Positions 49,188 to 64,000 of a stretch of 64,000 bases of DNA are shown here, piece by piece. The translations under genes were made by a program, and so were the position numbers. Within the stretch, counting starts at the first letter, position 1, and the number at the start of each line of letters is the position of its first letter. The notes under the pieces are model-generated. The model searched no databases. It was not told the DNA's origin and saw only the letters and a list, made by a program, of their open reading frames with translations. The DNA lies in the NCBI GenBank assembly GCA_964520655.1, contig CAZFNI010000010.1:371-64370 (forward strand). Reading direction: 5' to 3'. The DNA comes from an uncultured Planctomycetales bacterium (GTDB taxonomy: Bacteria > Omnitrophota > Gorgyraeia > Zapsychrales > Fredricksoniimonadaceae).

Positions 49188-49189
49188 AT

Positions 49190-49212
49190 AAAGGGGACGG
49201 TCCCCTTTATCC
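49190..49212 (+). terminator. rho-independent terminator-like hairpin after the giant ORF
   Basis: aaagggg acggt cccctttat: a 7-bp GC-rich stem, 5-nt loop and T-rich tail, starting 3 nt after the TAG. Confidence 0.5.
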
Positions 49213-49246
49213 TGAATTTTCTCCTGATTTCATTAGACATTCTCCA

Positions 49247-49984
49247 TTGGGCCGTGGCATAATCCCTCCCATGGAATTATCATTAAAAGAACTGCGTCAG
49301 AAATTACGTTCACATGCCAACCCGGCTAAAGCAGAGGTCTATAAACGTTTCTTTAAGACAGGCAAAGGCCAATACGGCCACGGGGACCGGTTTATCGGAC
49401 TGACCGTTCCTCTTCAGCGTTCGCTTGCCAAACAGTTCGTGCATTTAGGTCTAACGGATATTGACGCGCTGCTGCAAAGCCCTATCCACGAGGAGCGGTT
49501 GACGGCGCTGCTGATCTTGGTGGCGCAGTATAAGAAAGCCCCCCAGCGCCAGCGGAAGGTTATCTTTGAATTCTATTTGAAGAGATCCGCCCGGGTCAAT
49601 AATTGGGACCTGGTGGACCTAAGCGCGTATCATATCGTCGGGGCGCATTTGGAAGGCCAGCCGCATGATATTCTTTTCAAGCTGGCCAGGTCGAAGAATT
49701 TATGGAAGCGGCGCATCGCGATCGTGGCGAGTTTTCATAATATCACCCGCGGTAAAAGCGAGCCGACGCTTATTTTGGCCGCGATGCTGCTCAAAGACAA
49801 AGAAGAGTTGATCCATAAGGCTGTTGGCTGGATGTTGCGCGAGGTGGGCAAACGGGTGGGGCGGGATGTTCTGGAAGATTTCCTGTGCCGCAATTATAAG
49901 CGCATGCCCCGGGTGATGCTGCGTTACGCCATCGAACGCCTGCCGCTGGAAAGACGCATAGCCTACCTGAAAGCGGAGTTGTAA
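49247..49984 (+). CDS. DNA alkylation repair enzyme (AlkD/AlkC-like HEAT-repeat DNA glycosylase); probable true start ATG 49271
   Basis: PAKAEVYKRFFKTGKGQYGHGDRFIGLTVPLQRSLAKQF and HEERLTALLILVAQY match the DNA_alkylation family signature (..YFKTG.GQYG.GD.F.G...P..R.LA). Confidence 0.7.
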   Translation: MGRGIIPPMELSLKELRQKLRSHANPAKAEVYKRFFKTGKGQYGHGDRFIGLTVPLQRSLAKQFVHLGLTDIDALLQSPIHEERLTALLILVAQYKKAPQRQRKVIFEFYLKRSARVNNWDLVDLSAYHIVGAHLEGQPHDILFKLARSKNLWKRRIAIVASFHNITRGKSEPTLILAAMLLKDKEELIHKAVGWMLREVGKRVGRDVLEDFLCRNYKRMPRVMLRYAIERLPLERRIAYLKAEL

Positions 49985-50011
49985 ATCGGGGGTTGTCCAG
50001 GTCCCTTTTTT

Positions 50012-50428
50012 ATGTATAATACGTTCATGATGAAATTTTTACTGATCATTCTTGTTGTTGCGGCTGGGGCGGGCTGTGCTTTTAATGAGACGTATAATCC
50101 TGTTGCTGCCTCGACCTCCGGCACTTTTGAGCTTAATCAAAGCGCGTTGAAAAAAGTGACGCTTGGCATGCTCCAACCCCAGGTCCACCAGCTGATGGGG
50201 GAGACGATCATTATCGGATATAATTATGCCGATGATGTTCACGGGACGGCCACGCCGTTGACCTTGCAGAATCCTTACAAGACATCTGTGGCGGCGGATG
50301 GGTGTGTGGTGGAATATTATGCCACATCCGTGGTTGTTCCCGACGGTGTTGTCAGCGACGCGGAGCTTTTGCCGCTAAAATTCTGTCAGGGAAAGCTTGT
50401 CGCCAAAGGATGGGATAGCGCCAAGTGA
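50012..50428 (+). CDS. BamE/SmpA-OmlA-like small lipoprotein
   Basis: Signal peptide MKFLLIILVVAAGAGC with a lipobox-like Cys. KKVTLGMLQPQVHQLMGE matches the BamE motif (..GMT..QV...LG.P). Confidence 0.5.
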   Translation: MYNTFMMKFLLIILVVAAGAGCAFNETYNPVAASTSGTFELNQSALKKVTLGMLQPQVHQLMGETIIIGYNYADDVHGTATPLTLQNPYKTSVAADGCVVEYYATSVVVPDGVVSDAELLPLKFCQGKLVAKGWDSAK

Positions 50429-51354
50429 CACCGTTGTATGTGACACTGAAACCCTATCTGGATGCGGCCGTGCTTGACAGGCCTGTCAACTGGCAGCACA
50501 TTTTCGGCAACGCCAACCCTTTAGAAGTTGAGATCGGCATCGGCAACGGGGAATATTTAGCCAGGATCTGCGGCGAGAACCCTCGGGTCAATTATGTCGG
50601 TTTTGAGGAATATTGCGAACGCGTCAGCCGGTCGCTGCGCAAGTTAAGCCGGGTTTCTTCTGCGAATGCCCGGGTGATGCGCATGGATGTCCGTCCGGCT
50701 TTGGAATATCTGTTCGCTCCCAGAAGTGTCCGGTTCTTTCATTGTCTGTTTCCAGCGCCGTGGCCCAAGAAGTCTGATATCAAGCACCGGCTGATGAGAA
50801 CAGATTTTTTACGTCTGGTCAACAGCCGCCTGTGCGACGGCGGCGGACTTAAAGTTGTTACCGATTTTAAGCCGTATGCGACCTGGGTCAAAGAGCAAGT
50901 TTTAGGCAGCGGGTTTAGCCTGATTGAGACTGTGATCGGAGCCAATTACGGGACCAAGTTCGAACGTAAATGGCAGGAGTCAGGCCAGAAAGAATTCTAC
51001 GAACTGTTGTTGACCAAAATAGAACATTGCGATGTTCCCATCAAGAAGGCGGCGGATATTCAACATTACACGTTACCTGATTTTAATCCCGATCGTTTTT
51101 CCATGCCGGATGTGACAGAAGGAAAATGCGCGGTTGTCTTTAAGGAATATCTTTTTGATCCCAGGCAGGCCAAGGCGCTGGTCTATGTGCTTGTTTCCGA
51201 CGAGGAATTGCTGCAGCATGTACGGGTGTCGGTCGTGAAGACAAAAGCAGGATGGCACGTGGGGCTGGCGCAAGGGTCGATGCAGATGCCGACCCCAGGC
51301 ATCGCCAGGGCTATCGCGTGCGTGCGCGACGCGGTCATCAAGAGCGTGGCATGA
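50425..51354 (+). CDS. trmB: tRNA (guanine46-N7)-methyltransferase TrmB with ~100-aa C-terminal extension
   Basis: EVEIGIGNGEYLARICGENPRVNYVGFEE is the SAM-binding region. FHCLFPAPWPKKSDIKHRLM is the TrmB PDPWPKK.H.KRR motif. GTG start overlaps the previous stop. Confidence 0.8.
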   Translation: MTPLYVTLKPYLDAAVLDRPVNWQHIFGNANPLEVEIGIGNGEYLARICGENPRVNYVGFEEYCERVSRSLRKLSRVSSANARVMRMDVRPALEYLFAPRSVRFFHCLFPAPWPKKSDIKHRLMRTDFLRLVNSRLCDGGGLKVVTDFKPYATWVKEQVLGSGFSLIETVIGANYGTKFERKWQESGQKEFYELLLTKIEHCDVPIKKAADIQHYTLPDFNPDRFSMPDVTEGKCAVVFKEYLFDPRQAKALVYVLVSDEELLQHVRVSVVKTKAGWHVGLAQGSMQMPTPGIARAIACVRDAVIKSVA

Positions 51355-52181
51355 TCAGACGCGTTCTCATCGGCATATTGATCATCTCTTTGGCTGCGCC
51401 TCCAGAAGCCTTTGCCGCGAAGAACCGCCGTAAGAAACACCGCTCCCGCGGTTCATATTCCGCATCCACACTTTTGCTCAAGGATATCACAACGAATACG
51501 ACTTTGTATGGAAGAAATGCCCAGCGGCCTGTTTATCCGGCGAGCACGACCAAGGTCATGACCGCGCTTTTGGTGTTGGAAAAGCTCCCGCTCGACGCGC
51601 TGGTGACGGTTTCTGCCTCAGCGATCAATGTCCCGGAAACAAAGCTTGGGCTGATCCCCGGCGAGCAATACCGGGTCAGGGACCTGCTGTTCGCGATCTT
51701 GCTAAAATCCGCTAACGATGCGGCCAATGTACTGGCGGAAGCTGCCGGCGGTTCCCAGATGAAATTCGTGAGCCTGATGAATGCCAAGGCCAAAGCGCTG
51801 GGGGCCTCGCGCACGTGTTTTAGCAACCCCAGCGGCCTGCCTTCAGCGACGGTTCAGTATACAACCGCCAGCGACATGGCAATAATTATGCAAGAAGCCT
51901 TGAAAAACCCGGTTTTCTGCAAGATAATATCTTTCAAATACCGGATCATCTATTCCAAAGATGGCCGCAGGTTCTTTTTGAAATCTCACAACCGTTCGCT
52001 GTTCCTGCGCTGGAAAAGGGATGTCTACGGAAAAACAGGCTACACGCGTCAGGCGCAATCCTGTTTTATCGGGTATGTCCAAAAGAACGGGCATATGCTG
52101 GTCATTGCTGTCTTTGACAGCCGCCGGCGCTGGGAAGACGTAAAACATGTTATTGAACGTTATGGAAAAGTGGATCTATAA
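51351..52181 (+). CDS. D-alanyl-D-alanine carboxypeptidase (peptidase S11, low-MW PBP, short form)
   Basis: Signal peptide MIRRVLIGILIISLAAPPEAFA. SxxK (PASTTKVMTA), SxN (KSANDAAN) and KTG (GKTGYT) motifs. The ORF track begins at 51252, but an ATG at 51351 overlaps the trmB stop (ATGA) and precedes the signal peptide. Confidence 0.8.
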   Translation: MIRRVLIGILIISLAAPPEAFAAKNRRKKHRSRGSYSASTLLLKDITTNTTLYGRNAQRPVYPASTTKVMTALLVLEKLPLDALVTVSASAINVPETKLGLIPGEQYRVRDLLFAILLKSANDAANVLAEAAGGSQMKFVSLMNAKAKALGASRTCFSNPSGLPSATVQYTTASDMAIIMQEALKNPVFCKIISFKYRIIYSKDGRRFFLKSHNRSLFLRWKRDVYGKTGYTRQAQSCFIGYVQKNGHMLVIAVFDSRRRWEDVKHVIERYGKVDL

Positions 52182-52196
52182 ACCAGGAGGAATTGT

Positions 52197-53027
52197 ATGA
52201 ATAATATTTTCACGGTGATCATATCAGTGTTGATAGGGATCGTCGCAGGTATCAGTTTGCTGCTGGGGATCAATTCGACCGTCATGAACGCCAATATGCC
52301 CATGTATGTGCAGATCAAGGAATTGACGACCCATTCTGCCGAGCTTCAGAAAAAGATCGATGTGATCAAGGAGCAGGTCGCGGCGCAGGATAATCTATTA
52401 AAGTCGCTGGTGACTAAGGGCGACAAGCTCATCCAGCTTTCCCAACAGCGGCCGGTTGCGGCTCCAACACCTTCTCCAGTAGCCGCACAGCAGCCTCCGG
52501 AAGAGGACATGGACAAGGTCTATACGATCCCCGATGGCGGCTCTCCCATCATCGGCAAGAAGAACGCGCCTGTTACCATCGTGATGTTCTCTGATCTTCA
52601 ATGCCCGTTCTGCAACCGTTTCTATCCGCCCGTACGGGATGTGCTCAAAGCTTATCCGGATAAAGTGCGTTTGATCATCAAGCACTTCCCGCTGCCGTTC
52701 CATCCGAACGCGCGTCCGGCGGCAAAGTTGACGCTGGCAGCCAATGAACAGGGGAAATTCAAGGAAGTGATGGAATTATTATTAGAGAACGGCGCGGATG
52801 TTTCCGAAGCGAAGGTCAAGGAGTACGCCACGAAGGCCGGATTGAATCACACCCGTTTGGTCAATGACTTAAAGAACAATGACGCCAAGTATGAAGCCCA
52901 GCTGGAGGAAGACGCGAAATTGATCAATTCCAGCGACGTGCGCGGGACCCCGACATTCTTTATCAATGGTAAAAAAGCACAGGTCCGTGACTTAGACGGT
53001 TATAAAGCGATCATCGATAAATTATAG
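52197..53027 (+). CDS. membrane-anchored DsbA-family thiol:disulfide oxidoreductase
   Basis: N-terminal TM anchor. Thioredoxin-fold CPFC active site (SDLQCPFCNRF). DsbA-like C-terminal region GTPTFFINGK. GGAGG RBS at 52186-52190. Confidence 0.75.
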   Translation: MNNIFTVIISVLIGIVAGISLLLGINSTVMNANMPMYVQIKELTTHSAELQKKIDVIKEQVAAQDNLLKSLVTKGDKLIQLSQQRPVAAPTPSPVAAQQPPEEDMDKVYTIPDGGSPIIGKKNAPVTIVMFSDLQCPFCNRFYPPVRDVLKAYPDKVRLIIKHFPLPFHPNARPAAKLTLAANEQGKFKEVMELLLENGADVSEAKVKEYATKAGLNHTRLVNDLKNNDAKYEAQLEEDAKLINSSDVRGTPTFFINGKKAQVRDLDGYKAIIDKL

Positions 53028-53092
53028 TTGCCAAAAAAGCCTCTCTGCGGTATAGTATGGGCTTTCAAAAAGACGTTAGGGAGGAGTGTTTT

Positions 53093-53347
53093 ATGGGTGG
53101 TCGTGTTGGTGGTATAACAAGTAAATATTATAGTGAAACACGCGGGATGAAGGTTTCCGGCGGTCAGAAAGTCAAGTCCGGGACCGTGTTGACCCGTCAG
53201 GGGCAGATCTGGAAGCCCGGCATTAACGTGAACGGTCAAAGTTCATTGACCGCGGCTGTGGACGGGGAAGTGTATTTCACCCGTAAAAAGAACAGCTATA
53301 AAAAAGTGGTCACGTTGATCAATATCAAACCAGCAGCAAAAAACTAA
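53093..53347 (+). CDS. rpmA: ribosomal protein bL27-like (divergent N-terminus)
   Basis: GGQKVKSGTVLTRQGQIWKPGINVNGQSSLTAAVDGEVYFTRK aligns with E. coli L27 [46 protein letters not shown]. GGAGG at 53080-53084 precedes ATG 53093 (ORF track starts at 53057). It is not adjacent to rplU and lacks the AHKKGGG N-terminus. Confidence 0.55.
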   Translation: MGGRVGGITSKYYSETRGMKVSGGQKVKSGTVLTRQGQIWKPGINVNGQSSLTAAVDGEVYFTRKKNSYKKVVTLINIKPAAKN

Positions 53348-53356
53348 GATACGTTT

Positions 53357-55186
53357 ATGTGCGGTATCGTCGGCTTTATCGGCGTCAAGGATGCGACGCC
53401 AATCTTAATCGATAGTTTAAAAAAGCTCGAATACCGCGGCTATGATTCAAGCGGCGTCGCTGTGCTCAACAACGACGCCGTTTTGTTTGTCCGCAAATCC
53501 AAGGGCAAGATCGCGAACTTAGAAGGGCTGCTTGCGAAGGACCCGCTTCCTTTTTCCAGAGTGGGCATCACCCACACCCGCTGGGCGACGCACGGGGGCC
53601 CCAGTGATATCAATTCCCATCCGCATACGGATGCCAAACATCAATTCGCCGTTGTGCATAACGGCATTATCGAAAATTATTTAGAGATCAAAGAACGGCT
53701 CAAGGCCAAAGGCTATAAGTTCGTCTCCCAGACCGATACCGAGGTAATTGCCCATTTATTGGCGCTGCACTATAAAGGTGATTTTGCCCAGGCCGTGCGT
53801 AAGACATTGTCTGAATTGGTTGGGGCTTTTGCGGTGGGGATCATCTGCCGCGATCATCCCGGCGTGCTCATGGCGGCCCGTGTCGGTTCGCCGTTGATCA
53901 TTGGTTTAAGCGATCAGGGTAATTATATCGCCTCCGATGTCCCCGCGATCATCGAGCGCACCCGTCGTGTTATTTATTTACAAGACGGGCAAATGGCTCA
54001 GATCACCGCGGACAAGATCCAGGTAAGTACATTCGACGGTAAAGCGGTCAAGCACAAGGTGGACACGGTGGCTTTTTCCATCGAAGCCGCGCAAAAGAAC
54101 GGTTTCGCCCATTTTATGCTCAAAGAGATCCACGAACAGCCCGGCGTCATCGGGAATATGCTGGATCTGCGCATCAAAAAGGGAAAGCTTAATATGGAAG
54201 GGCTGGGGCTTTCAGCCAAGGCCTTAAAAGCGTTCCGCAAGATCACCATCGTTGCCTGCGGTACAGCCTACCATGCCGGCCTCGTCGGTAAATATGCGTT
54301 AGAGGAGATCGCCCGCGTCAGTGTTGAGATCGACACTTCCAGTGAATTCCGTTACCGCAACCCGATCGTCGACAAGCAGACGCTCATCATCGCGATCAGC
54401 CAGTCGGGCGAGACGGCGGATACTCTGGCGGCGGTCAAAGAAGCCAAAAGACGCGGCGCGAAAGTCTTGGCCATTTGCAACGTGATCGGATCGTCTCTGG
54501 CCCGTGAGGCCGACGGTGTTTTGTACACGCATGCCGGCCCGGAGATCGGGGTGGCCTCGACAAAAGCTTATACCGCCCAGCTGCTGATGATGTATTTATT
54601 GACCATTCATTTAGGGCAGACCCGCGGCACGTTAAAAAGCGCGGACGCAAAGGATCTTATCAAGAATATTTCCCGTGTTCCGTCGCTGTATAAAACGATC
54701 CTGGAGCATCGTGCCCGTATCCAGAAAGTGGCGGAAGCCAATTCTCATTTCGGCTGCTTCCTTTATTTGGGCCGTAACATCAATTTCCCCTCAGCGCTGG
54801 AGGGGGCGCTTAAACTCAAAGAGATCTCGTACATCCCGGCAGAAGGCTATGCGGCCGGTGAAATGAAGCATGGTCCCATTGCTTTGATCGACGAATACCG
54901 CGCGGTCGTCTGTATCGCGCCTCAGTCCCATGTGTATGAGAAAATGGTCTCGAATATCCAGGAGATCAAGGCGCGTAAGGGGACGGTCATTGCGGTCGTT
55001 TCCGTCGGTGATACGCATGTGCACAAGGATGCGGATTACTGCCTGGAAGTGCCTCAGATCGATGAGATCCTGTCTCCGTTGCTGGTCGTTTTGCCGCTGC
55101 AATTGATGGCCTATTATGTCGCGGTCAAGCGCGGATGCGACGTCGACCAGCCCCGCAATCTCGCCAAATCCGTCACCGTCGAATAA
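53357..55186 (+). CDS. glmS: glutamine--fructose-6-phosphate aminotransferase
   Basis: N-terminal MCGIVG with the Cys1 nucleophile. Two SIS domains. Ends in the C-terminal ...KSVTVE motif. 609 aa. Confidence 0.95.
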   Translation: MCGIVGFIGVKDATPILIDSLKKLEYRGYDSSGVAVLNNDAVLFVRKSKGKIANLEGLLAKDPLPFSRVGITHTRWATHGGPSDINSHPHTDAKHQFAVVHNGIIENYLEIKERLKAKGYKFVSQTDTEVIAHLLALHYKGDFAQAVRKTLSELVGAFAVGIICRDHPGVLMAARVGSPLIIGLSDQGNYIASDVPAIIERTRRVIYLQDGQMAQITADKIQVSTFDGKAVKHKVDTVAFSIEAAQKNGFAHFMLKEIHEQPGVIGNMLDLRIKKGKLNMEGLGLSAKALKAFRKITIVACGTAYHAGLVGKYALEEIARVSVEIDTSSEFRYRNPIVDKQTLIIAISQSGETADTLAAVKEAKRRGAKVLAICNVIGSSLAREADGVLYTHAGPEIGVASTKAYTAQLLMMYLLTIHLGQTRGTLKSADAKDLIKNISRVPSLYKTILEHRARIQKVAEANSHFGCFLYLGRNINFPSALEGALKLKEISYIPAEGYAAGEMKHGPIALIDEYRAVVCIAPQSHVYEKMVSNIQEIKARKGTVIAVVSVGDTHVHKDADYCLEVPQIDEILSPLLVVLPLQLMAYYVAVKRGCDVDQPRNLAKSVTVE

Positions 55187-55204
55187 AGGGGACGCTTACC
55201 TTTT

Positions 55205-55867
55205 ATGTTGTATATTGTTTCGACCCCCATAGGGAATCTCAAGGATATAACGCTGCGCGCTTTGGAGGTGTTAAAGGATGTTGATGTGATCGCCGCGGAA
55301 GATACGCGTCACACCAAGATCCTGCTGGAGGCCTACGGCATCGTCAAACCGCTGGTCAGTTTTTTTGAACATAACCAGACCCGTAAGACCAAAGATATTA
55401 TCGCGCTGCTTAAGGAAGGTAAAAAAGTGGCGTTAGTCAGCGACGCGGGCACTCCGGGGATCAGTGATCCAGGCTACCCGTTGATCGAGGCCGTACTGGC
55501 GGAAGGCGTTCCACTTGAGGTAATTCCCGGGCCCTGTGCGGCCATTACCGCCTTGACAGCGTCGGGGATGCCGGCGCATCGTTTTTCATTTGAAGGTTTC
55601 CTGCCCGTGAAAGCGGGGGCGAGACGCAAACAACTAGCGACGCTTAAAGACCAGAACGGCACAACTATTTTTTATGAATCTCCGCATCGCTTGCTTAAAA
55701 CGCTGGAAGATATTGAAGGCGTCCTACCGGAAGCGGATGTTGCCTGCGCCAGGGAATTGACTAAAAAGTTCCAGGAGGTTAAACGCGGCAGCGCGAAAGA
55801 ACTGCGGGAACACTTCACCGCCCATCCCCCCAAGGGCGAGTTTGTCATTTTGATCAACGCGGGATGA
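55205..55867 (+). CDS. rsmI: 16S rRNA (cytidine1402-2'-O)-methyltransferase
   Basis: MLYIVSTPIGNLKDITLRALEVLKDVDVIAAEDTRHT is the canonical RsmI/TP-methylase N-terminus. 220 aa. Confidence 0.9.
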   Translation: MLYIVSTPIGNLKDITLRALEVLKDVDVIAAEDTRHTKILLEAYGIVKPLVSFFEHNQTRKTKDIIALLKEGKKVALVSDAGTPGISDPGYPLIEAVLAEGVPLEVIPGPCAAITALTASGMPAHRFSFEGFLPVKAGARRKQLATLKDQNGTTIFYESPHRLLKTLEDIEGVLPEADVACARELTKKFQEVKRGSAKELREHFTAHPPKGEFVILINAG

Positions 55868-57247
55868 TCAGTGACGATCATTCATTTTTTTTCGCAATTC
55901 GGCGAGGTCTTTCTTTAGCGCGTCGATCTGATTCTGCTGTTGTTTGATGGCTTCGATCAAGGCTCCGACAAGGTTCTCCATAAAAACGTGTTTAATGCCT
56001 TTTTTATCCGTAAAGACAAGTTCCGGGAACACTTTTTCCACGTCCTGGGCGATCACGCCCAAAGATCTTTTTTTGTCTTTCTTCCAGGTAAAGGTAACGC
56101 CTCGCAGCGCTCTTACCTTATTTAAGGCATCGGTGATAGGCGTGATGTTCTCTTTCAAACGTTCATCGGAGGGGGCGCCGTAATAATACCCGCCGCTTAA
56201 GTTGTAAATATCTCCGTCAACGCCCATGTCGCCTAAGACATACAAGCGATAAGAAGCGTTCGGTGCCGCGCCGACCCCGACGCTGCCGCTTAAGGTGGTT
56301 GTGCCGACAGCAACATTTAAGGCTCCGCCCGCAATGGTGACCCCGGCATTGAAAGTGGCCAGGCCGGTGGTGGATAATGTTCCCCCGACGGTGGTATTGT
56401 TGGATAGGGTGGTAACGCCCGTGACACCAAGTGTGCTATTGACCTGCGTGGCCCCGCCCAGGGTTGTTGCTCCGGTGACATTTAACGTGCTGTTGACCGC
56501 GGTAGCGCCATTTAAAGTGCTTGTGCTTCCGGCGGTGAATGTGCCGGGACTGGTGACAGAAAGGGCGGTGGAAACATTGGCTGTGGCAAGGGTTGTTGTC
56601 CCGCTGACACGGGCATTGCCGGTGACATCCAGTTTCTGGGTTGGAACCATGCCGATCCCAAGTCCCGTTGAGGTTAGCCGCATTTGCTCCGCGCTATTAG
56701 TGTAAAAGGTAAGTGTATCAGCCGCGGGGTAGCTTAAATAAGTCGTTGTTCCGCCAAGATACAGGTTTGGGTTTGCGGCACTTAAGATCATATTGCCGTT
56801 GACGTCGAGTTTCTGAGCAGTAGCACCGGCGGGATTGATGCCCAGATTGCCGTTTGCCTCAAGGGTCATCTGGTCAGCGCCGTTGTTGATCCGAAAGTGT
56901 ATGGCCTGCCCAGCAGGGCGGTTAAAGTACAAGGCTTGGTCAGCCGTGCTGCTGCGGATATGCGCATTGGCGCAAGTCCGGTCGCCGGCCAGTCCTATTC
57001 CCACAAAACCCGCGCAGCCGGTTGCTTCTCCGATAGCAACATTGGTCGCTACCGTCACGTTTGAGCCGGCGTTGACGGTGCCGACACCAATATTATTAGC
57101 CGTTAAGATGTCATAATTGCCTGTTGGTGCCGGATAATAGGTGTTGATCGTATTGGATCCGGCAGCTGATGCCGTTAAGGGGGCCGCGAATACCGCCGTT
57201 AACAGGAACATCAGTAGTCGTTGTTTGGTCATCCAGGAATATGCCAT
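55868..57247 (-). CDS. secreted tail-fibre-like repeat protein with C-terminal Peptidase_S74 intramolecular chaperone domain (paralog 1)
   Basis: Signal peptide, then Thr/Gly/Asn/Ala-rich beta-repeats (TGATTLGGATQVNSTLGVTGVTTLS...). The last 100 aa, SDERLKENITPITDALNKVRALRGVTFTWKKD..., match the SDxRLKxNI auto-cleaving chaperone signature (nt 55871-56170). Confidence 0.7.
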   Translation of the reverse strand: MAYSWMTKQRLLMFLLTAVFAAPLTASAAGSNTINTYYPAPTGNYDILTANNIGVGTVNAGSNVTVATNVAIGEATGCAGFVGIGLAGDRTCANAHIRSSTADQALYFNRPAGQAIHFRINNGADQMTLEANGNLGINPAGATAQKLDVNGNMILSAANPNLYLGGTTTYLSYPAADTLTFYTNSAEQMRLTSTGLGIGMVPTQKLDVTGNARVSGTTTLATANVSTALSVTSPGTFTAGSTSTLNGATAVNSTLNVTGATTLGGATQVNSTLGVTGVTTLSNNTTVGGTLSTTGLATFNAGVTIAGGALNVAVGTTTLSGSVGVGAAPNASYRLYVLGDMGVDGDIYNLSGGYYYGAPSDERLKENITPITDALNKVRALRGVTFTWKKDKKRSLGVIAQDVEKVFPELVFTDKKGIKHVFMENLVGALIEAIKQQQNQIDALKKDLAELRKKMNDRH

Positions 57248-57265
57248 AGAGGAGGCCTCGCCGAT

Positions 57266-58648
57266 TTATTTGTTAAGGGTCATTTTCATTTGCTCGATCT
57301 CTTGTTGAATTTTGTCGAGCTGCTGCTGCTGGTCTTTGACATCCTCGATTAAAAGGCCGACCAGGTTTGGGTACTGCACATGTTTAAATTTTTTTCTGTC
57401 TTGATAGACCAGTTCCGGGAAGTTTTTCTCCACGTTCTGCGCGGTTAGGCCCAGGGCTCTTTTCTTGCTGTCTTTCCAGGTGAAGTAAACCCCTTTAAGT
57501 GATCTGGTCTTGGTTAATGCGTGTGTGATGGGAAGGATATTGTCTTTAAGCATCTCATCCGATGGTGCCGGGCCGTATTTGTATTCACCACTGATATTAT
57601 AAAGGTCTCCATCAATGCCGACCGCCTCAATGATGCCTGCTTCCTTGACGATCAGTCGATAGGGCAATGTGGGGGCTATTCCCATCCCGGTGCTGCCCGT
57701 TAAGGTGGATGTGCCGGCAACGCTTAGATCGCCCCCGGCAATGTTGATCCCGCCCGGGTTAAAGGTGGCAAGCCCGGTTGTGAGCAGGGTGCCTGTGACC
57801 GAGGCATTGCTTGATAAAGTGGCAATGCCAGTAACGCCAAGCGTGTTGTTGATCTGCGTGGCCCCGCTTAAGGTTGTTGCGCCGGTAACGGCCAGCGTGC
57901 TGTTGATGGCTGTTACCCCGTTTAGAGAACTGGTGCCTCCGGCGGTGAATGTGCCGGGATTGGTGACGGCAAGAGCGGTGGAAACATCAGCGGTCGAAAG
58001 AGAAGTGGTCCCGCTGATGCGGGCATTGCCATTAATATCGAGCTTTTGTGATGGGGCATAGCCAATGCCAAGACCGGTTGAATTCAGGCGTATTTGTACG
58101 AGGCTGTTGGTGTTAAAAGTTATGCTATTCGCAGAAGGGGAAGTTAAAGAGGTGGTCGCGCCTCCGAAAAAGAGGCTTGGGGCGGCTGAGCTTAAGATCA
58201 TATGACCGTTGACATCTAGTTTCTGAGCAGCAGCGCCACCGGGATTGATGCCCAGATTGCCGTTTGCCTCAAGGGTTATCTGGTCGGCGCCATTGTTGAT
58301 CTTATAATGGATATTCTGCCCAGTTGGCCGGTTGATATACAGAGCGGTGTCTCCCGAACTGCTGGAGAGTTGATAACTGGCGCAGGAAGCACTACCCGTA
58401 AATCCGATAGCGCCATAACCGCCGCATCCTTCTCCAATGACGGCATTATTGGCAATGGTCAGGTGGTCGCCGACAGTTGTTGTGCCCACCCCGATCGACC
58501 GGGCGTATAAATTATCATAATATGTCCCTGGTCTGGGATAATAGGTGACCATGGTCAAAGAGCCGGCATAGGTGATCAAAGGGAGGATGAGGACGGCGAA
58601 AAGCACAGCAGGCCATAATTTCAGTTTCATATTTAAAGTATACGACAC
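57266..58648 (-). CDS. secreted tail-fibre-like repeat protein with C-terminal Peptidase_S74 intramolecular chaperone domain (paralog 2)
   Basis: Same architecture as paralog 1. SDEMLKDNILPITHALTKTRSLKGVYFTWKD at the C-terminus (nt 57269-57562). The N-terminal TYYPRPG.YDNL...IGVGT block is shared with paralog 1. Start may be the internal MKLKL at ~58630. Confidence 0.7.
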   Translation of the reverse strand: MSYTLNMKLKLWPAVLFAVLILPLITYAGSLTMVTYYPRPGTYYDNLYARSIGVGTTTVGDHLTIANNAVIGEGCGGYGAIGFTGSASCASYQLSSSSGDTALYINRPTGQNIHYKINNGADQITLEANGNLGINPGGAAAQKLDVNGHMILSSAAPSLFFGGATTSLTSPSANSITFNTNSLVQIRLNSTGLGIGYAPSQKLDINGNARISGTTSLSTADVSTALAVTNPGTFTAGGTSSLNGVTAINSTLAVTGATTLSGATQINNTLGVTGIATLSSNASVTGTLLTTGLATFNPGGINIAGGDLSVAGTSTLTGSTGMGIAPTLPYRLIVKEAGIIEAVGIDGDLYNISGEYKYGPAPSDEMLKDNILPITHALTKTRSLKGVYFTWKDSKKRALGLTAQNVEKNFPELVYQDRKKFKHVQYPNLVGLLIEDVKDQQQQLDKIQQEIEQMKMTLNK

Positions 58649-58681
58649 AAAAGGGATATGGCAAGGAAAGGATTTGAAAAC

Positions 58682-58710
58682 TTGCTTATTCCAGCAAATA
58701 ATGGTATATT
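58682..58710 (+). promoter_or_regulatory. sigma70-like promoter for pyrR-pyrB-pyrC
   Basis: TTGCTT, a 17-nt spacer, then TATATT, read directly about 65 nt upstream of the pyrR ATG. Confidence 0.4.
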
Positions 58711-58741
58711 CTCAATCAACATTTGTGATCCTTTACCTTTA

Positions 58742-58766
58742 ATCCGGTTCCGAGAAGCCGGGAAGG
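58742..58766 (+). promoter_or_regulatory. candidate PyrR-binding hairpin overlapping the pyrR Shine-Dalgarno
   Basis: TCCGG-ttccgagaag-CCGGGAAGGG: a 5-bp stem with the loop UUCCGAGAAG, resembling the PyrR RNA site consensus (UCCAGAGAGGCU). The 3' arm runs into the GGAAGGG SD. Confidence 0.3.
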
Positions 58767-58773
58767 GACTTAA

Positions 58774-59310
58774 ATGACCATACACCCCATTTTAGACCAA
58801 GACGCTATCCGCCGCTGTATCATGCGCATGGCCCACGAGATCTGCGAGAAGCAGGAGCAGTCCCCTCTGGCCTTAGTCGGCATCCGCACCCGCGGGGTTG
58901 TCCTCGCCCAACGTTTAAGCAAAGCTATCGAAGAGATCGAAAAGATCAAGGTTCCCGTTGGCATTCTTGATATCACCTTGTACCGCGATGATCTGACATC
59001 GGTCGGCAGCGCGCCTCTGGTGCGCGAGACATTGATCGATTTTGATATCACCGATAAACGCATCGTCTTAGTTGACGACGTGTTCTTTACCGGACGCACC
59101 ATCCGCGCGGCGCTGGATGCCTTGACCGATTTCGGCCGTCCTGCGAAGATCGAGCTTGCGGTCTTAGTTGACCGCGGCCACAGGGAATTACCCATCCGGG
59201 CGGATTTTGTGGGCAAAAATATCCCGACTTCCAAGGGACAGAACGTGAAGGTTGATCTAGGCGAGACTGACGGCAAGAATGACGCGGTGACCGTTGAGGA
59301 GGGGCGATGA
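58774..59310 (+). CDS. pyrR: bifunctional pyrimidine operon regulator / uracil phosphoribosyltransferase PyrR
   Basis: 178 aa. PRTase motif [34 protein letters not shown] is typical of PyrR. Confidence 0.9.
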
Positions 59311-60236
59311 GCACGTGGACGCGCAAACATTTACTGGGTTTATCTGATCTAAGCAAAGAAGAGATCGAGCTTATCCTGGAAACTACACGGTCGTTCAAAG
59401 AAGTTTCGTCGCGCGATGTTAAAAAAGTCCCGGCACTTCGTGGTAAAACGGTCGTCACCCTGTTCTTTGAACCTTCCACCCGCACGCGGGTGTCTTTTGA
59501 GCTGGCGGCCAAGCGTTTGTCGGCGGATACGCTCAACATCGCGGCGAATGTGTCATCGACGACCAAAGGCGAAACGTTATTGGATACAGCCAAGAATATC
59601 GAGGCGATGAGCGTGGATGCCATGATCGTGCGTCACGGTTCTTCCGGCGCGCCCATGATCCTGGCGGAGGGTTTGAATTGTTCGGTTATCAATGCCGGCG
59701 ACGGCTGCCGCGAACATCCGACCCAGGCGCTGTTAGACATGTTCACCTTAAAAGAAAAATTCGGACGCATCGATGGTCTTAACGTGGCGATCGTCGGAGA
59801 CATTTTGCATTCCCGCGTGGCGCGTTCCAATATCTGGGGATTGACCAAGCTGGGGGCCAAGGTCACTGTCTGCGGTCCGGCGACGCTCATTCCCCGCGGT
59901 GTTGAGGCCATGGGGGTCAAGGTCTGTTACGATATCAAGCGCGTCATCAAGGATTCGGATGCGGTCATTGCCCTGCGCCTGCAGAAAGAACGCCAGCAGG
60001 ATAAATTCTTACCGTCGCTGCGCGAATACGGCAGGCTGTTTGGGATCAACGCGGCCAAATTAAGCGAAGGGACAAGCGATCTGATCGTCATGCATCCGGG
60101 GCCGACCAACCGCGGTGTCGAGCTCTCCGCGGAGGTCGCTGACGGCAAGCAATCAGTCATTTTAGACCAAGTGACCAACGGGGTGGCGGTGCGCATGGCC
60201 GTTCTGTATCTGGTCCTGGGAACAAAGGCGGAATAA
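59307..60236 (+). CDS. pyrB: aspartate carbamoyltransferase catalytic subunit
   Basis: FFEPSTRTR (carbamoyl-phosphate binding STRTR), HPTQALLD and the HPGP.NRG motifs. 309 aa. Start overlaps the pyrR stop. Confidence 0.92.
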
Positions 60237-61514
60237 ATGGGACTTTTGATCAAGAACGCAACGATCGTCAACAACGACAAGATCTGGGATAAACCACAGG
60301 ATATTTTATGCGAGAACGGTACGATCATAAAGATCGCACCGTCCATTTCCAATGACAAACATGAGATCGTCGACGCCAAGGACCGTAAGGTCATGCCGGG
60401 CTTGATCGACATCCATGTGCATTTGCGCCAGCCTGGACGGGAAGATAAAGAAACCATTGAGACCGGTTCAAAAGCCGCGGTCAAAGGCGGTTTCACCTCG
60501 ATCTTTTGTATGCCTAATACTACCCCAGTCACTGATAATGCCATGGTCGTGGAATTCATCATCCGCGAGGCCAAACGCGTCGGGTTGTGCAACGTTTATC
60601 CGATCGGGGCGATCACCAAGGGACAGAATGACGGCGAGCTGACCGATATGTCGGAATTAAAGAACGCGGGCTGTCTGGCGCTCTCCGATGATGGTAAGTC
60701 GGTCTTAAACAGCCGGTTGTTCCGTCTGGGGATGGAATATGCCAAGATGCTGGATCTGTTGATCATAGAACACTGCCAGGATCCGCTGTTGACCGGCGGC
60801 GGGGTGATGAATGAAGGCGCGGTGTCGACCAGGATCGGCTTAAAAGGCGACCCGGGCATCGCCGAGACCGTCACGGTCGCGCGCGACATTGAGATCGCCC
60901 ATTATTTGGATGCCCGCGTGCATCTGGCGCACATGTCCTTAAAGCGCTCCATTGAATTGATACGTCAGGCCAAGAAACAGGGCATTAAAGTGACGGCGGA
61001 GGCCTGCCCGCACCATTTTGCCTTGACCGATGAGGCTTGCGCGAGCTTTGATACATCGACAAAGGTTAATCCGCCGCTGCGCACTCAAGCGGATGTGGAT
61101 GCTATTAAAGAAGCGATCGCCGACGGGACCATTGACTGCATTGTCACCGACCACGCGCCGCATACGAATGAAGATAAAGAGGTTGGGTTTGACGGGGCGC
61201 CTTTTGGATTGATCGGTTTGGAAACATCATTAGGGTTGACCATTAAAGAACTGGTCAAGCCGGGATTCATTGATCTGCCCAAATTAGTGGACAGGATGTC
61301 GGCCGCGCCGGCACGGATCACGGGATTGTCGACTAAAGGGGTGATCAAAGAAGGGTTTGACGCGGATATCGTGATCATTGACGATGATAAAGAATGGAAA
61401 GTCACTAAAGAAGGGTTTGCTTCGAAATCCAAGAATTCCCCCTTCATCGGTTGGACGCTGACGGGAGAAGTCAGCACAACCATTTGCGCGGGGAAAGTCG
61501 TCTATAAGAAATAA
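60237..61514 (+). CDS. pyrC: dihydroorotase
   Basis: MPGLIDIHVHLRQPG metal-binding HxH, DHAPH motif. 425 aa. Confidence 0.9.
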   Translation: MGLLIKNATIVNNDKIWDKPQDILCENGTIIKIAPSISNDKHEIVDAKDRKVMPGLIDIHVHLRQPGREDKETIETGSKAAVKGGFTSIFCMPNTTPVTDNAMVVEFIIREAKRVGLCNVYPIGAITKGQNDGELTDMSELKNAGCLALSDDGKSVLNSRLFRLGMEYAKMLDLLIIEHCQDPLLTGGGVMNEGAVSTRIGLKGDPGIAETVTVARDIEIAHYLDARVHLAHMSLKRSIELIRQAKKQGIKVTAEACPHHFALTDEACASFDTSTKVNPPLRTQADVDAIKEAIADGTIDCIVTDHAPHTNEDKEVGFDGAPFGLIGLETSLGLTIKELVKPGFIDLPKLVDRMSAAPARITGLSTKGVIKEGFDADIVIIDDDKEWKVTKEGFASKSKNSPFIGWTLTGEVSTTICAGKVVYKK

Positions 61515-61733
61515 GAGTTTTAGACTTGCAGAAGGTTGCGATTAGCTGCGAAGCAGCTAAAAGGGGATTATTAAGGGGAAAGATTGTTTCTCCTTAAGGG
61601 TAGCGGAAATTATGGTAGGAGGGGTTTGACAGTCAGGACAGAACGAAGTGATGTCGTGACGCCAGAAGGGGAACCGTAGGTTCCCCTAATGGAAAATGAG
61701 CCCCCCGCAGAAAGAACGTAGAAGGCTCATTTT

Positions 61734-61805
61734 GCGCCCGTGGCCTAATGGATAAGGCAGCAGCCTCCGGAGCTGCTGATGCAGGTTCGAATCCCGCCGG
61801 GCGCG
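61734..61805 (+). tRNA. tRNA-Arg (anticodon CCG)
   Basis: Cloverleaf read by hand: acceptor GCGCCCG/CGGGCGC, D-arm GCCT-AATGGATA-AGGC, anticodon arm GCAGC-CTCCGGA-GCTGC (U33, CCG, G37), variable TGAT, T-arm GCAGG-TTCGAAT-CCCGC (one A.C mismatch), discriminator G. No encoded CCA. Confidence 0.85.
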
Positions 61806-61825
61806 TTTAAATTCAAGGAAAGCTC

Positions 61826-62299
61826 ATGAGAAAACAAAAAATATCCATATCCGTCATTGGTGGGAGCTCGATCAGCACCAGGGTGGAAGAATTGGCCATG
61901 AAGGTTGGTGCGATGATCGCCTCTTTAGACTGTGTTTTAGTCTGCGGCGGCTTAGGCGGGGCCATGGAAGCAGCTGCCGAAGGGGCCAAGAAAGCCGGCG
62001 GCCTGACGATCGGCATTCTCCCGGGTAAAGACAAGGATGATGCCAATCCGTTCATTGACATTGCCTTACCGACGTCGATCGGCTATGCCCGTAACACGAT
62101 CGTCGCTTGCTCGGCGGATATCGTGGTCGCGCTGCCCGGTAGTTACGGCACGAATTCCGAGATCTGCTATGCGCTGGTCTACGGCCGTCCGGTCATTGAC
62201 CTGGGGAATTGGAATTTGGAGGGGATGATCAGCGTTAAGAATGTGGAAGAAGCGCAGGAAAAAATAAAGAAGATCATCAAAAAACTGCACCATGCCTGA
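61826..62299 (+). CDS. TIGR00725-family / LOG-like (SLOG Rossmann) protein
   Basis: SVIGGSS...LVCGGLGGAMEAAAEGAKKAGGLTIGILP...RNTIVACSADIVVALPGSYGTNSEI follows the GG.GGVM.A...GA...GG..IGI ... RN ... SD..I.L.GG.GT.SE family pattern. Confidence 0.6.
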   Translation: MRKQKISISVIGGSSISTRVEELAMKVGAMIASLDCVLVCGGLGGAMEAAAEGAKKAGGLTIGILPGKDKDDANPFIDIALPTSIGYARNTIVACSADIVVALPGSYGTNSEICYALVYGRPVIDLGNWNLEGMISVKNVEEAQEKIKKIIKKLHHA

Positions 62300-63095
62300 G
62301 CTCCCTGAAGTTGAGACTATCCGCAAAGACTTGTCGCGCTGTCTTTTACGAACGCGTATCATATCGGTTGACGTCAAAGACGCCCGAGTGCTGCGCCAGC
62401 CGGAAAATGATTTTATCCGCCGATTAAAAGGAAAAATAATACAGCGTATCGAGCGGCGGGGGAAAGCGCTGATCATCGATTTAAGCGGACGGGAATTTCT
62501 CGTCGTCCAGGTCATGATGACCGGGCAGCTGGTTGTCGACGGCGCAATTGAGAAACATACTCGGCTGGTGTTCAAGCTGGATAAAAGAACATTGGTGTAC
62601 AATGACCAGCGCGTGTTCGGGCAGCTGCGCGTTGTGGGCGACTTGGCGCAGGTCCCTCATCTAAGAAAACTTGGGCCTGAACCCTTTGGGGGCGCGTTTA
62701 ATGCGGATTATGTCACGGAGTATTTAAGTCGGACGACGCGCGCGATCAAGACGGTCTTATTGGACCATGTGTTTGTCGCCGGTATTGGTAATATTTATGC
62801 CAGCGAGATCCTGTTCCGCTGCGGCATTGATCCGCAGCGTTCGTCGGCAAAGGTCAAGAAAACGGAGGTCCAACTGCTGCTTGAAAGAACGCGGGAGGTG
62901 CTGCAGGAAGCGATCGATCTGCGCGGATCATCCATGCGCAATTACCGCGACGGCCGGGGACAAAAGGGGGATTTCACCAAGGCGATCCGTGTGTATGCCC
63001 GGGAAGGTCAGCCTTGCATGGTTTGCCAGACGCCGATCGTGCGTGTTGTTCTTGGTGGAAGAAGTACATTTTATTGCAGGAAATGCCAAAAGTAA
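62292..63095 (+). CDS. mutM: formamidopyrimidine-DNA glycosylase (Fpg/MutM)
   Basis: N-terminal MPELPEVE with catalytic Pro2/Glu3. H2TH region. C-terminal zinc finger CMVCQTPIVRVVLGGRSTFYCRKCQ. Confidence 0.9.
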   Translation: MPELPEVETIRKDLSRCLLRTRIISVDVKDARVLRQPENDFIRRLKGKIIQRIERRGKALIIDLSGREFLVVQVMMTGQLVVDGAIEKHTRLVFKLDKRTLVYNDQRVFGQLRVVGDLAQVPHLRKLGPEPFGGAFNADYVTEYLSRTTRAIKTVLLDHVFVAGIGNIYASEILFRCGIDPQRSSAKVKKTEVQLLLERTREVLQEAIDLRGSSMRNYRDGRGQKGDFTKAIRVYAREGQPCMVCQTPIVRVVLGGRSTFYCRKCQK

Positions 63096-63119
63096 TTTGT
63101 TATACTAGACCCTGTCCAT

Positions 63120-63896
63120 ATGGAAAAGATCCAGAATATCTATAAGGTTGTCAGCAACGAGCAATTATGTCCGCAGTATTGGCGGCTGGTCTTTGACGCG
63201 CCTCCTTTGGTCCGCGAGGTCAAACCTGGACAGTTCGTTCACATCCGCACCAATGAGAAGGGGCTTGAGCCATTCTTCCGCCGGCCGTTCTCTGTTTATC
63301 GTGCCCAGAAACATGTGGAAATATTCTATGATGTCAAAGGCCCGGGGACAAAACTTCTTGCGGCCAAGACAAAAGGCGATACGCTCGATGTGCTGGGGCC
63401 GCTAGGCAAAGGTTTTGTGATGCCTCCAAAGGGGACCAAGCAGGTGGTCATGGTCGCTGGCGGCATCGGTGTAGCCCCCATGCTCATCCTCTCGGATGAG
63501 CTTAAACCATTGAAATATCAGCTGGTCCTTATTTACGGCGGACGCTCCCGCGCCCACGTTTATCCGTTAAAAGAATTCAAGGATAATGGTGTGACCGTGC
63601 ATATCGCGACCGATGACGGTTCCGTAGGGTTTAAGGGAAGAGTCAGTGGTTTGTTCGATAAGATCAAGCTGGATCCCCAAACAACGTTCGTGTACACCTG
63701 CGGACCAAACCCGATGATGAAGGCGGTGCAGGACTTTGCCGCAACGCATCAATTAAAAGGACAGGCGGCCTGTGAAGAGATCATGGCCTGCGGCCTGGGC
63801 GCGTGCCTGGGATGTTCGATCGAAACAACCAAAGGTTTCAAGACGGTCTGCTACGACGGGCCGGCGTTTCCTTTAGACGAGGTCAAGTTCCACTGA
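63120..63896 (+). CDS. pyrK: dihydroorotate dehydrogenase electron-transfer subunit
   Basis: FAD/NAD-binding ferredoxin-reductase-like fold (RPFSV, MVAGGIGVAPM). C-terminal 2Fe-2S cysteines CGLGACLGC...C. 258 aa. Confidence 0.85.
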   Translation: MEKIQNIYKVVSNEQLCPQYWRLVFDAPPLVREVKPGQFVHIRTNEKGLEPFFRRPFSVYRAQKHVEIFYDVKGPGTKLLAAKTKGDTLDVLGPLGKGFVMPPKGTKQVVMVAGGIGVAPMLILSDELKPLKYQLVLIYGGRSRAHVYPLKEFKDNGVTVHIATDDGSVGFKGRVSGLFDKIKLDPQTTFVYTCGPNPMMKAVQDFAATHQLKGQAACEEIMACGLGACLGCSIETTKGFKTVCYDGPAFPLDEVKFH

Positions 63897-64000
63897 TGAA
63901 TATTTCCATCCGCATAGGCAGCGCGATTTTCAAGAATCCGGTCACGGTCGCCTCCGGCACCTTCGGCCATGCCGAGCGGTATTTTGATCTGGAAGAGGTT
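63896..64000 (+). CDS. pyrD: dihydroorotate dehydrogenase catalytic subunit (class 1B), 5' fragment truncated by window end
   Basis: ATG overlaps the pyrK stop (TGATG). MNISIRIGSAIFKNPVTVASGTFGHAERYFDLEEV is the typical PyrD N-terminus. Confidence 0.7.
   Translation, partial: MNISIRIGSAIFKNPVTVASGTFGHAERYFDLEEV

Follow-up and report, generated by a model that had tools for sequence, protein, structure and literature searches.

Trimeric fibres with a self-cleaving Peptidase_S74 domain at the C-terminal end are known from phages and also from cells. In Bdellovibrio, 21 mosaic adhesive trimer (MAT) proteins are located at the surface and combine a trimeric shaft with a signal peptide and a conserved ~130-amino-acid (aa) domain at the N-terminus; 13 of them have an autoproteolytic S74 end and eight have other tips, and the set has a role in prey handling (Caulton et al. 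2024, PMC10769870). Here we describe two adjacent genes, fibre genes A and B, in a 64-kb stretch of contig CAZFNI010000010.1 (hereafter, the window), which belongs to a genome titled as an uncultured Planctomycetales bacterium and placed by GTDB in Omnitrophota. In this Omnitrophota bacterium, the two genes probably encode trimeric surface fibres made by the cell, and not phage parts.

Like the S74 subgroup of the MAT fibres (e.g., Bd3182), proteins A and B are cell-encoded and combine a predicted signal peptide with a conserved N-terminal element, a beta-rich shaft, predicted here to be trimeric, and an S74 domain of the SDxxxK type. Both systems are also mosaic families that include members with other tips. 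The MAT capping loop, V-G-G/N-pi-x-x-P-x-x-x-L, has counterparts in the fibres described here (GNLGINPAGATAQKL, GLGIGMVPTQKL and SVGVGAAPNASYRL). However, the phylum is a different one, the conserved N-terminal element measures ~16–20 aa as against a domain of ~130 aa, and the mature proteins would have ~330 aa, whereas MAT fibres are up to ~550 Angstrom long. The fibres may work like MAT fibres, but they are not classed with them; membership appears doubtful because family-wide conservation is limited to ~16–20 residues.

Phage fibres and tailspikes with an intramolecular chaperone (ICA), such as K1F endoNF (3GW6), phi29 gp12 (3GUD), T5 pb1 and S16 gp37 (6F45), share the S74 domain, the Ser-Lys dyad and the terminal helix, and shaft repeats are present in viral fibres as well. 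In contrast to the proteins considered here, phage fibres possess virion-attachment N-termini, lack a signal peptide and are set among structural genes, and the similarity stops at about aa 330. The ICA of eukaryotic MYRF (7DC3) is the best structural match of the C-terminal domain and likewise performs Ser-Lys autocleavage after trimerisation, but MYRF is a membrane-tethered transcription factor, and its domain releases a DNA-binding trimer instead of a fibre. An NCBI “tail fiber domain-containing protein” (P0064, Candidatus Gygaella obscura) has the same domain annotation and a TYYPAPYGSY start, although its name is an automatic one only.

Omnitrophota are ultra-small, uncultured bacteria thought to depend or prey on other cells, and attention has so far been given to their giant proteins, Tad and type IV pili (PMC10066038; bioRxiv 10.1101/2023.11.21.568195). 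Fibre proteins of this sort are unmentioned in the Omnitrophota papers searched. Neither the motif string of the N-terminal module described below nor a description of the module, its family or its context was found in the literature searched. Cell-encoded S74 fibres are known, and what is apparently new is the N-terminal module that extends across phyla.

S74 Domain and Shaft

The initial annotation had proposed S74 chaperone domains at the C-termini of both proteins. A hidden Markov model search with PF13884 (Peptidase_S74, cut-off of 22 bits) confirmed them, with 73.6 bits for copy A (aa 360–411) and 45.6 bits for copy B (aa 363–415); NCBIfam has no model matching either protein. The proposed motif SDxRLKxNI is exact in copy A (SDERLKENI) but not in copy B, which reads SDEMLKDNI; alignments of 16 and of 24 sequences show no variation at the Ser, Asp or Lys. 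Catalysis by the S74 domain has the Ser-Lys dyad as its indispensable element (PMC8326128), and the dyad is intact in both copies as S360/K365 (copy A, Lys codon at 56153–56155) and S363/K368 (copy B). As in other S74 proteins, the domain also lies at the C-terminus, has the ICA fold and closes with a helix predicted to suit a trimeric coiled coil.

A monomer model of copy A was built with AlphaFold2 (AF2) on the 24-sequence alignment. The S74 fold is modelled confidently, with a predicted local distance difference test (pLDDT) of 80–93, and ends in a long helix at aa 423–458. The shaft is formed by beta-strands (pLDDT of 76–89 for aa 100–200). A Foldseek search of the PDB with this model returned the MYRF ICA 7dc3 first (E = 3e-4), followed by the Bdellovibrio Bd2133 fibre 8ond (E = 6e-4, with a low TM-score) and the phage chaperones 3gud and 3gw6. 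Among predicted viral structures, 289 matches were obtained at E ≤ 1e-3, all of them ICA-domain fibre proteins. The PHROGs matches are tail-fibre and baseplate families only, mostly reached through the C-terminal ~100 residues.

The shaft of copy A contains two “capping-loop” units of the form GNxGIxxxxPxxKLDV. The pair Cys78/Cys92 (copy A numbering) is conserved across all positional orthologues, i.e., the fibre genes found in the same chromosomal place in related genomes, which fits an extracytoplasmic protein. The Thr/Gly/Asn-rich repeats noticed in the initial annotation are borne out by the composition of aa 205–335 (24% Thr, 15% Gly and 8% Asn). In this region (56244–56634), hydrophobic residues show periodicity at lags of 6 and 18. 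A weak sequence match in the PDB, 9f5x “CAG1” from a study of the mitochondrial respiratory chain, was put down to repeat composition only. CAG1 is presumably a gamma-carbonic-anhydrase-like left-handed beta-helix subunit of complex I, and the periodicity together with this match hints at a shaft with hexapeptide-type turns.

When 1.84 billion representative proteins were searched with aa 29–215 of copy A, 1,144 relatives were obtained at E ≤ 1e-3. The majority match via a repeated unit, GNxGIGxxxPxxKLxV; a handful have the TYYP start described below, and some others have a phage-fibre-like start. Hence, the shaft and the S74 end are common to phages and cells, and the export signal plus the TYYP start is the cell-specific part.

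Predicted Export Signals and the N-Terminal Motif

Both N-termini combine a basic n-region, an 11-aa hydrophobic core (mean Kyte–Doolittle hydropathy of 2.71 in copy A and 3.24 in copy B) and an A-x-A-type site (ASA/AG and TYA/GS, respectively). The signal peptides were called from this n/h/c-region pattern by inspection and from hydropathy, and both genes are thus predicted to start with a Sec-type signal peptide. A signal-peptide-like N-terminus is kept in all positional orthologues, and aa 3–25 of copy A are modelled as a helix by AF2.

The TYYP block that the initial annotation noticed in both proteins follows shortly after the predicted signal peptide. The TYYPxP codon pattern has exactly two matches in the window, at equivalent sites of both genes, where 0.01 would be expected by chance. 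The motif of copy B is divergent, with Arg replacing Ala/Ser and the Gly shifted by one position. Across 24 relatives, Y37, Y38, P39, P41 and Y45 (copy A numbering) are invariant, and these positions and one shaft glycine are the only invariant ones outside the S74 domain.

A Wider Family of TYYP-Start Proteins

The motif is carried by 24 of the 120 best S74 homologues. TTYYP[AS]PxGxY was back-translated to a degenerate DNA pattern (~38 bits) and scanned against one genome per GTDB species, where ~4 chance matches would be expected in 596 Gb on both strands. It was found in at least 120 genome stretches (at least 137 ORFs). By record title, the 120 motif loci listed (L006–L125) comprise 69 Omnitrophota, 23 Elusimicrobiota, 15 uncultured Planctomycetia/Planctomycetales and 13 unclassified. 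In 2.9 million viral contigs, the DNA pattern was not matched once. Relaxing it brought up 11 viral matches, none of them related: they were either an internal site in a family of ~207-aa proteins or tiny ORFs.

The motif starts 3–86 aa into the frame in all 137 ORFs listed, typically at ~25–45 and downstream of a hydrophobic stretch. Conservation also extends to residues that the search pattern leaves free: Glu at −5 (83%), Thr at −2 (83%), Leu/Ile at −3 and −1, and Leu at +13 (74%). From these flanking positions, the mature chain is expected to start approximately as E-x-[LI]-T-[LI]-T-T-Y-Y-P-[SA]-P-x-G-x-Y-x-x-L. Copies A and B both fit the family definition, a hydrophobic signal segment and, a few residues further on, [LI]T[LI]TTYYP[SA]PxGxYxxL, copy B in its divergent form. 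No Pfam or NCBIfam model covers the motif in the window proteins or in the 7 + 116 other members.

The C-termini vary. Among 116 complete members, 16 (~14%) end in Peptidase_S74, five have Gly_rich_2, single members have Gp34_trimer, ApeC or Dockerin, and the rest have no Pfam domain. At least two Cys occur in the last 60 residues of 60 of the 101 members without S74, and tandem arrays of two or three members occur at 16 loci. The N-terminal module, i.e., a signal peptide and then [LI]T[LI]TTYYP[SA]PxGxY, marks a larger mosaic family of predicted secreted proteins, mostly without S74, and apparently constitutes a phylum-spanning module undescribed so far.

Most TTYYP-start proteins are 130–300 aa long, lack Pfam domains and have tails rich in Cys (…MLCCRIY, …YVCCQ, …FLCCAYT); short examples are L122:1645-2325:-, L044:880-1425:+ and L083:5271-5981:+. 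The neighbours of the motif loci are clade-limited and include radical SAM, Memo, PhoH/PIN and barstar proteins. At 9–14 of the 120 loci, many of them Elusimicrobia-labelled, two radical SAM genes (one for a protein of ~480 aa with Fer4_12) accompany an acidic 147-aa protein and a Memo-like protein; L018, L027, L043, L083, L090, L092, L093, L101 and L105 are among the radical SAM/Memo loci. This neighbourhood could reflect clade synteny or maturation of the Cys-rich members. In the 15 metagenome-assembled genomes titled Planctomycetia/Planctomycetales (L006, L013, L023, L027, L028, L041 and others), the motif stands in the context AEEITITTYYPSPYG, which is Omnitrophota-like, and these titles may be coarse placements rather than true Planctomycetota.

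Genomic Context and Relation to Phages

The fibre genes lie among housekeeping genes, as stated in the initial annotation. One flank contains trmB, a D-Ala-D-Ala carboxypeptidase-like gene, a DsbA-like thioredoxin gene, rpmA, glmS and rsmI (identified by TIGR00096, 266 bits), and the other flank contains pyrR, pyrB, pyrC, a tRNA-Arg gene, a TIGR00725 protein gene, mutM and pyrK. Apart from the fibre genes, no phage gene was found in the window, the contents of which are a giant gene and housekeeping genes, and none was found within ±10 kb of related loci. The only hallmark of tRNA/integrase type is the tRNA-Arg gene, 3 kb away and unrelated to the fibre genes.

The order of rsmI, an opposite-strand fibre gene and pyrR-pyrB-pyrC was found in six other genomes (seven with that of the window). 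This slot holds two fibre genes in the sister genome L001 (GCA_041910255.1) and one each in L002–L004, L005, L038, L137 and L138. GlmS of the slot-sharing genomes is 78–89% identical to that of the window where pairing is possible, and every named relative of the window GlmS is Candidatus Omnitrophota/Omnitrophica. Given the slot shared by related genomes, the fibre gene is a vertically kept chromosomal gene of the clade, which substantiates the non-phage context claimed at the outset. The tandem duplication is confined to the species of the window and its sister and is recent, since five of the six related genomes have a single copy. Among the relatives with a single copy, L002–L004 have an IS200-like Y1 transposase gene (L002:11405-12064) and L005 has a HepT-like toxin gene (L005:6178-6498) where the second fibre gene would be, or in the spacer next to it. 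The slot beside the fibre gene seems permissive for insertions.

The comparison of copy A with 50,697 phage genomes by tblastn yielded matches in 676 records, none of which covers 80% or more of the query. The alignments span aa ~330–457, i.e., the last ~130 residues, with 44–56% identity.

Evolution of the Two Copies

Copies A and B are 60% identical over the full length (277/463). Among the positional orthologues, the mean identity is 80% in the motif and 68–71% in the S74 domain but 32–37% in the shaft, where ~47% of the columns are gapped. The fibres as a whole are 39–51% identical where GlmS is 78–89% identical.

Synonymous (dS) and nonsynonymous (dN) divergence was calculated for the window and the sister genome L001. 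The values for glmS, pyrR and pyrB are dS = 0.19–0.26 and dN = 0.008–0.015; rsmI is identical and copy A is near-identical (dS = 0.049). For copy B, dS is 0.35, dN is 0.075 and dN/dS is 0.22, and this copy evolves faster than copy A and 5–9 times faster than the neighbouring genes. Its N-terminal half (57800–58700) has the lowest conservation in the 17 kb compared (83–87%). In the sister genome, the part of copy B for aa ~181–240 is 90–98% identical to copy A at the nucleotide level, as against 62–70% in the window, which indicates a gene-conversion tract. The paralogues A and B are separated by a dS of ~1.4–1.6, old at synonymous sites, with dN/dS of ~0.19.

These values point to purifying selection overall, combined with fast change in the predicted binding part and exchange between the copies. 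The combination of conserved ends, a hypervariable middle and gene conversion is typical of the evolution of receptor-binding proteins. The initial annotation had suggested comparing the copies for diversifying selection; at a gene-wide dN/dS of ~0.2, no signal of positive selection was obtained.

The alignment of window positions 47300–63900 with L001 is a mosaic, in which tracts of 100% identity (~52400–53600, 55400–55700, 56300–56900 and 63000–63600) alternate with stretches of 87–95%. Both rsmI and copy A look recently exchanged between lineages (dS of 0–0.05 versus 0.19–0.26 in the flanks).

Gene Layout and the Giant Neighbouring Gene

The features of the locus are listed in Table 1. Both minus-strand ORFs are as reported in the initial annotation (459 and 460 aa). 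The public gene call for copy A, P0121, likewise has 459 aa, and GAGG stands 10–13 nt before its ATG. For copy B, the more likely true start is the ATG at 58630, giving 454 aa and matching the public gene call P0003. The short spacer between the genes suggests co-transcription.

Table 1. Features of the fibre locus, in window coordinates.
Feature	Position	Strand	Description	Basis
Fibre gene A (downstream copy)	55868..57247	-	459 aa; signal peptide, TYYP motif, beta-rich shaft, S74 intramolecular chaperone	ORF and Pfam
Copy A predicted signal peptide	57164..57247	-	aa 1–28, MAYSWMTKQRLLMFLLTAVFAAPLTASA/AG	Hydropathy, A-S-A site
Copy A N-terminal family motif	57104..57151	-	aa 33–48, TINTYYPAPTGNYDIL	Pattern match 57126–57142
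Copy A mature shaft	56171..57103	-	aa 49–359; Cys pair, capping-loop units, Thr/Gly/Asn repeats	
Copy A S74 intramolecular chaperone	55871..56170	-	aa 360–459; predicted cleavage before Ser360 (codon 56168–56170)	
A/B spacer	57248..57265		18 nt	
Fibre gene B (upstream copy)	57266..58648	-	460 aa from GTG 58648	ORF
Copy B predicted signal peptide	58565..58630	-	MKLKLWPAVLFAVLILPLITYA/GS	Hydropathy, T-Y-A site
Copy B N-terminal motif	58508..58558	-	LTMVTYYPRPGTYYDNL	Pattern match 58530–58546
Copy B S74 intramolecular chaperone	57269..57562	-	aa 363–460 (ORF numbering); Ser363 codon 57560–57562; motif SDEMLK	
Fibre B–pyrR intergenic region	58631..58773	both	Promoter-like hexamers; pyrR divergently oriented	

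On the minus strand, the sequence TTGCCA-16-TATACT ends at 58637 and would put the transcript start near the fibre B ATG. Three promoter-like matches were found in the intergenic region versus 3.2 expected in shuffled sequence, which makes this weak evidence, and the promoter and terminator scans in general gave counts no higher than the shuffled expectation. The stop codons of rsmI and fibre gene A abut (55867/55868), and a hairpin with a T-run spans their junction (55862–55883, plus strand). It may be an rsmI terminator inside the 3′ end of the opposite-strand fibre gene.

A single ORF of 16,333 aa occupies positions 186–49187 on the plus strand. Four chunks of 2,500 aa were scanned with Pfam and gave matches to Peptidase_C39 (aa 120–184, N-terminal), GGDEF, Glucosamine_iso and PALP. 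In this respect, the ORF corresponds to the “Archaeovorin”-type giant proteins known from Omnitrophota. The Pfam matches are enzyme-like and not adhesin-like, and they do not establish the ORF as the “giant surface protein” of the initial annotation. Counterparts of 16,700 aa (L001) and 23,593 aa (L002) occur at the same distance where the contig reaches, and the link between the giant gene and the fibre genes is one of conserved proximity only (~6.7 kb), within one clade. The first ~19 kb has a GC-content of 0.43–0.48, lower than that of the rest (0.51–0.54).

Proposed Function and Alternative Explanations

Export, trimerisation, cleavage, surface display and ligand binding or adhesion are all predicted from the protein sequences. 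Genes A and B would be co-transcribed from the pyrR-proximal side, and each pre-protein would be exported by Sec and lose its signal peptide, so that the mature chain would start a few residues before TYYPxPxGxY. Outside the cytoplasm, three S74 domains would join via the helices at their ends and serve as the template on which the beta-rich shaft folds; such trimer-templated folding is established for the domain family, and we infer it for copies A and B. The Ser-Lys dyad would then cut off the chaperone of ~100 aa, leaving a mature fibre of ~330 aa, the new C-terminal end of which would be the distal tip. Least certain of all, the N-terminal motif may mount or register the fibre on the cell. 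Ligand binding would fall to the variable shaft and tip; the predicted lifestyle of giant-gene Omnitrophota makes the surface of host or prey cells a plausible place for the ligand, and the tandem duplication and gene conversion between A and B would diversify the binding part. In this sense only do we infer the label “adhesin” that the fibre genes were given initially. The accompanying term “domesticated” would imply a passage from phage to cell.

The motif could serve as a peptide for docking, as the nucleus of trimerisation or as a signal for export across the outer membrane. The N-terminal tail of the adenovirus fibre (FNPVYPY) docks on the penton base, and the C-terminal foldon of T4 fibritin (GYIPEAPRDGQAY...) nucleates trimerisation. 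Both are short Tyr/Pro-rich peptides and serve as functional analogies for TYYPxPxGxY only, with no demonstrated homology. A bolder and tentative idea, which we hold to be possible but not the likelier outcome, is that TYYPxPxGxY is the address label of an undescribed surface mounting system common to Omnitrophota and Elusimicrobiota. One platform would accept interchangeable cargoes (S74 fibres, Gly-rich, Gp34-trimer-like and Cys-rich tips) as a cellular counterpart of the phage baseplate or the adenovirus penton base, and the pair in the window would be two recombining heads altering host or prey specificity.

Several points weigh against the interpretation as cell-made surface fibres. No anchoring partner was found, and the clustering of 839 neighbouring ORFs from the 120 motif loci yielded no universal neighbour. 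A trimer exported by Sec would also have to cross an outer membrane. The usual Arg at position +3 of the S74 motif (91 of 119 homologues) is Met in copy B and Gln in its sister-genome orthologue, which could weaken cleavage. The AF2 model is a monomer with a mean pLDDT of 70 and a predicted template modelling score (pTM) of 0.40, and the pLDDT of the TYYP motif is below 50. Whole-gene dN/dS is 0.18–0.22, and gene-wide positive selection is not seen. Lastly, that this particular organism is a predator or depends on a host is an assumption drawn from work on the phylum (PMC10066038; bioRxiv 10.1101/2023.11.21.568195).

The genes might instead be a remnant of a prophage, a tailocin or a contractile injection system, encoding virion or tailocin fibres, left over or still in use, that are assembled in the cytoplasm. 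Such an origin would agree with the PHROGs matches, all to tail-fibre or baseplate families, with the 676 similar phage records and with the 289 viral structural neighbours. Nevertheless, we regard it as highly improbable: no further phage gene accompanies the fibres in the window or within ±10 kb of the related loci, the slot between housekeeping genes is conserved in seven genomes, cytoplasmic assembly cannot be reconciled with Sec-type signal peptides, only the S74 end resembles phage proteins and the N-terminal module is absent from the 2.9 million viral contigs.

Two further explanations accept a cellular fibre and differ in its task. A structural fibre of the envelope or matrix (a periplasmic or surface scaffold, an S-layer-like spike or a biofilm component) would bind no cells, and the fast change in its shaft would reflect evasion of immunity or phages instead of the tracking of a ligand. 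The same architecture fits, the family is large and often has several copies per genome, no ligand-binding domain is recognisable and dN/dS is below 1; on the other hand, every characterised S74-capped trimeric fibre exposes a binding or enzymatic tip after cleavage (PMC10769870), and conserved ends with a hypervariable middle and gene conversion are typical of receptor-binding proteins, so that a purely structural role appears unlikely, if worth keeping in mind. A tailspike-type enzyme (polysaccharide depolymerase), or a soluble lectin or bacteriocin-like factor in place of an anchored adhesin, seems a rather poor explanation. S74 was first described on an endosialidase tailspike (PF13884 is named “Chaperone of endosialidase”), giant-gene Omnitrophota have been proposed to digest the surface polymers of prey and there are weak fold matches to the hyaluronidases 4ufq and 6wv2, but no catalytic domain was detected with Pfam or NCBIfam, the mature part amounts to a thin repeat of only ~330 aa and the strict conservation of the N-terminal motif speaks for attachment or sorting over free release.

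Significance

If proteins A and B are cell-made surface fibres, they would extend the case of Bdellovibrio, in which bacteria re-use the receptor-binding architecture of phages for cell–cell recognition. The genes are small and synthesisable, with a predictable processing site and a predicted hypervariable binding part, and offer a handle on partner recognition; the mature fibres could serve as probes to fish for partner organisms or to stain them. The N-terminal motif provides a simple rule to list such proteins per genome in two or three phyla and suggests that an anchoring or export step awaits discovery. Interest would rise should a dedicated surface-mounting system turn out to use the module as its address label.

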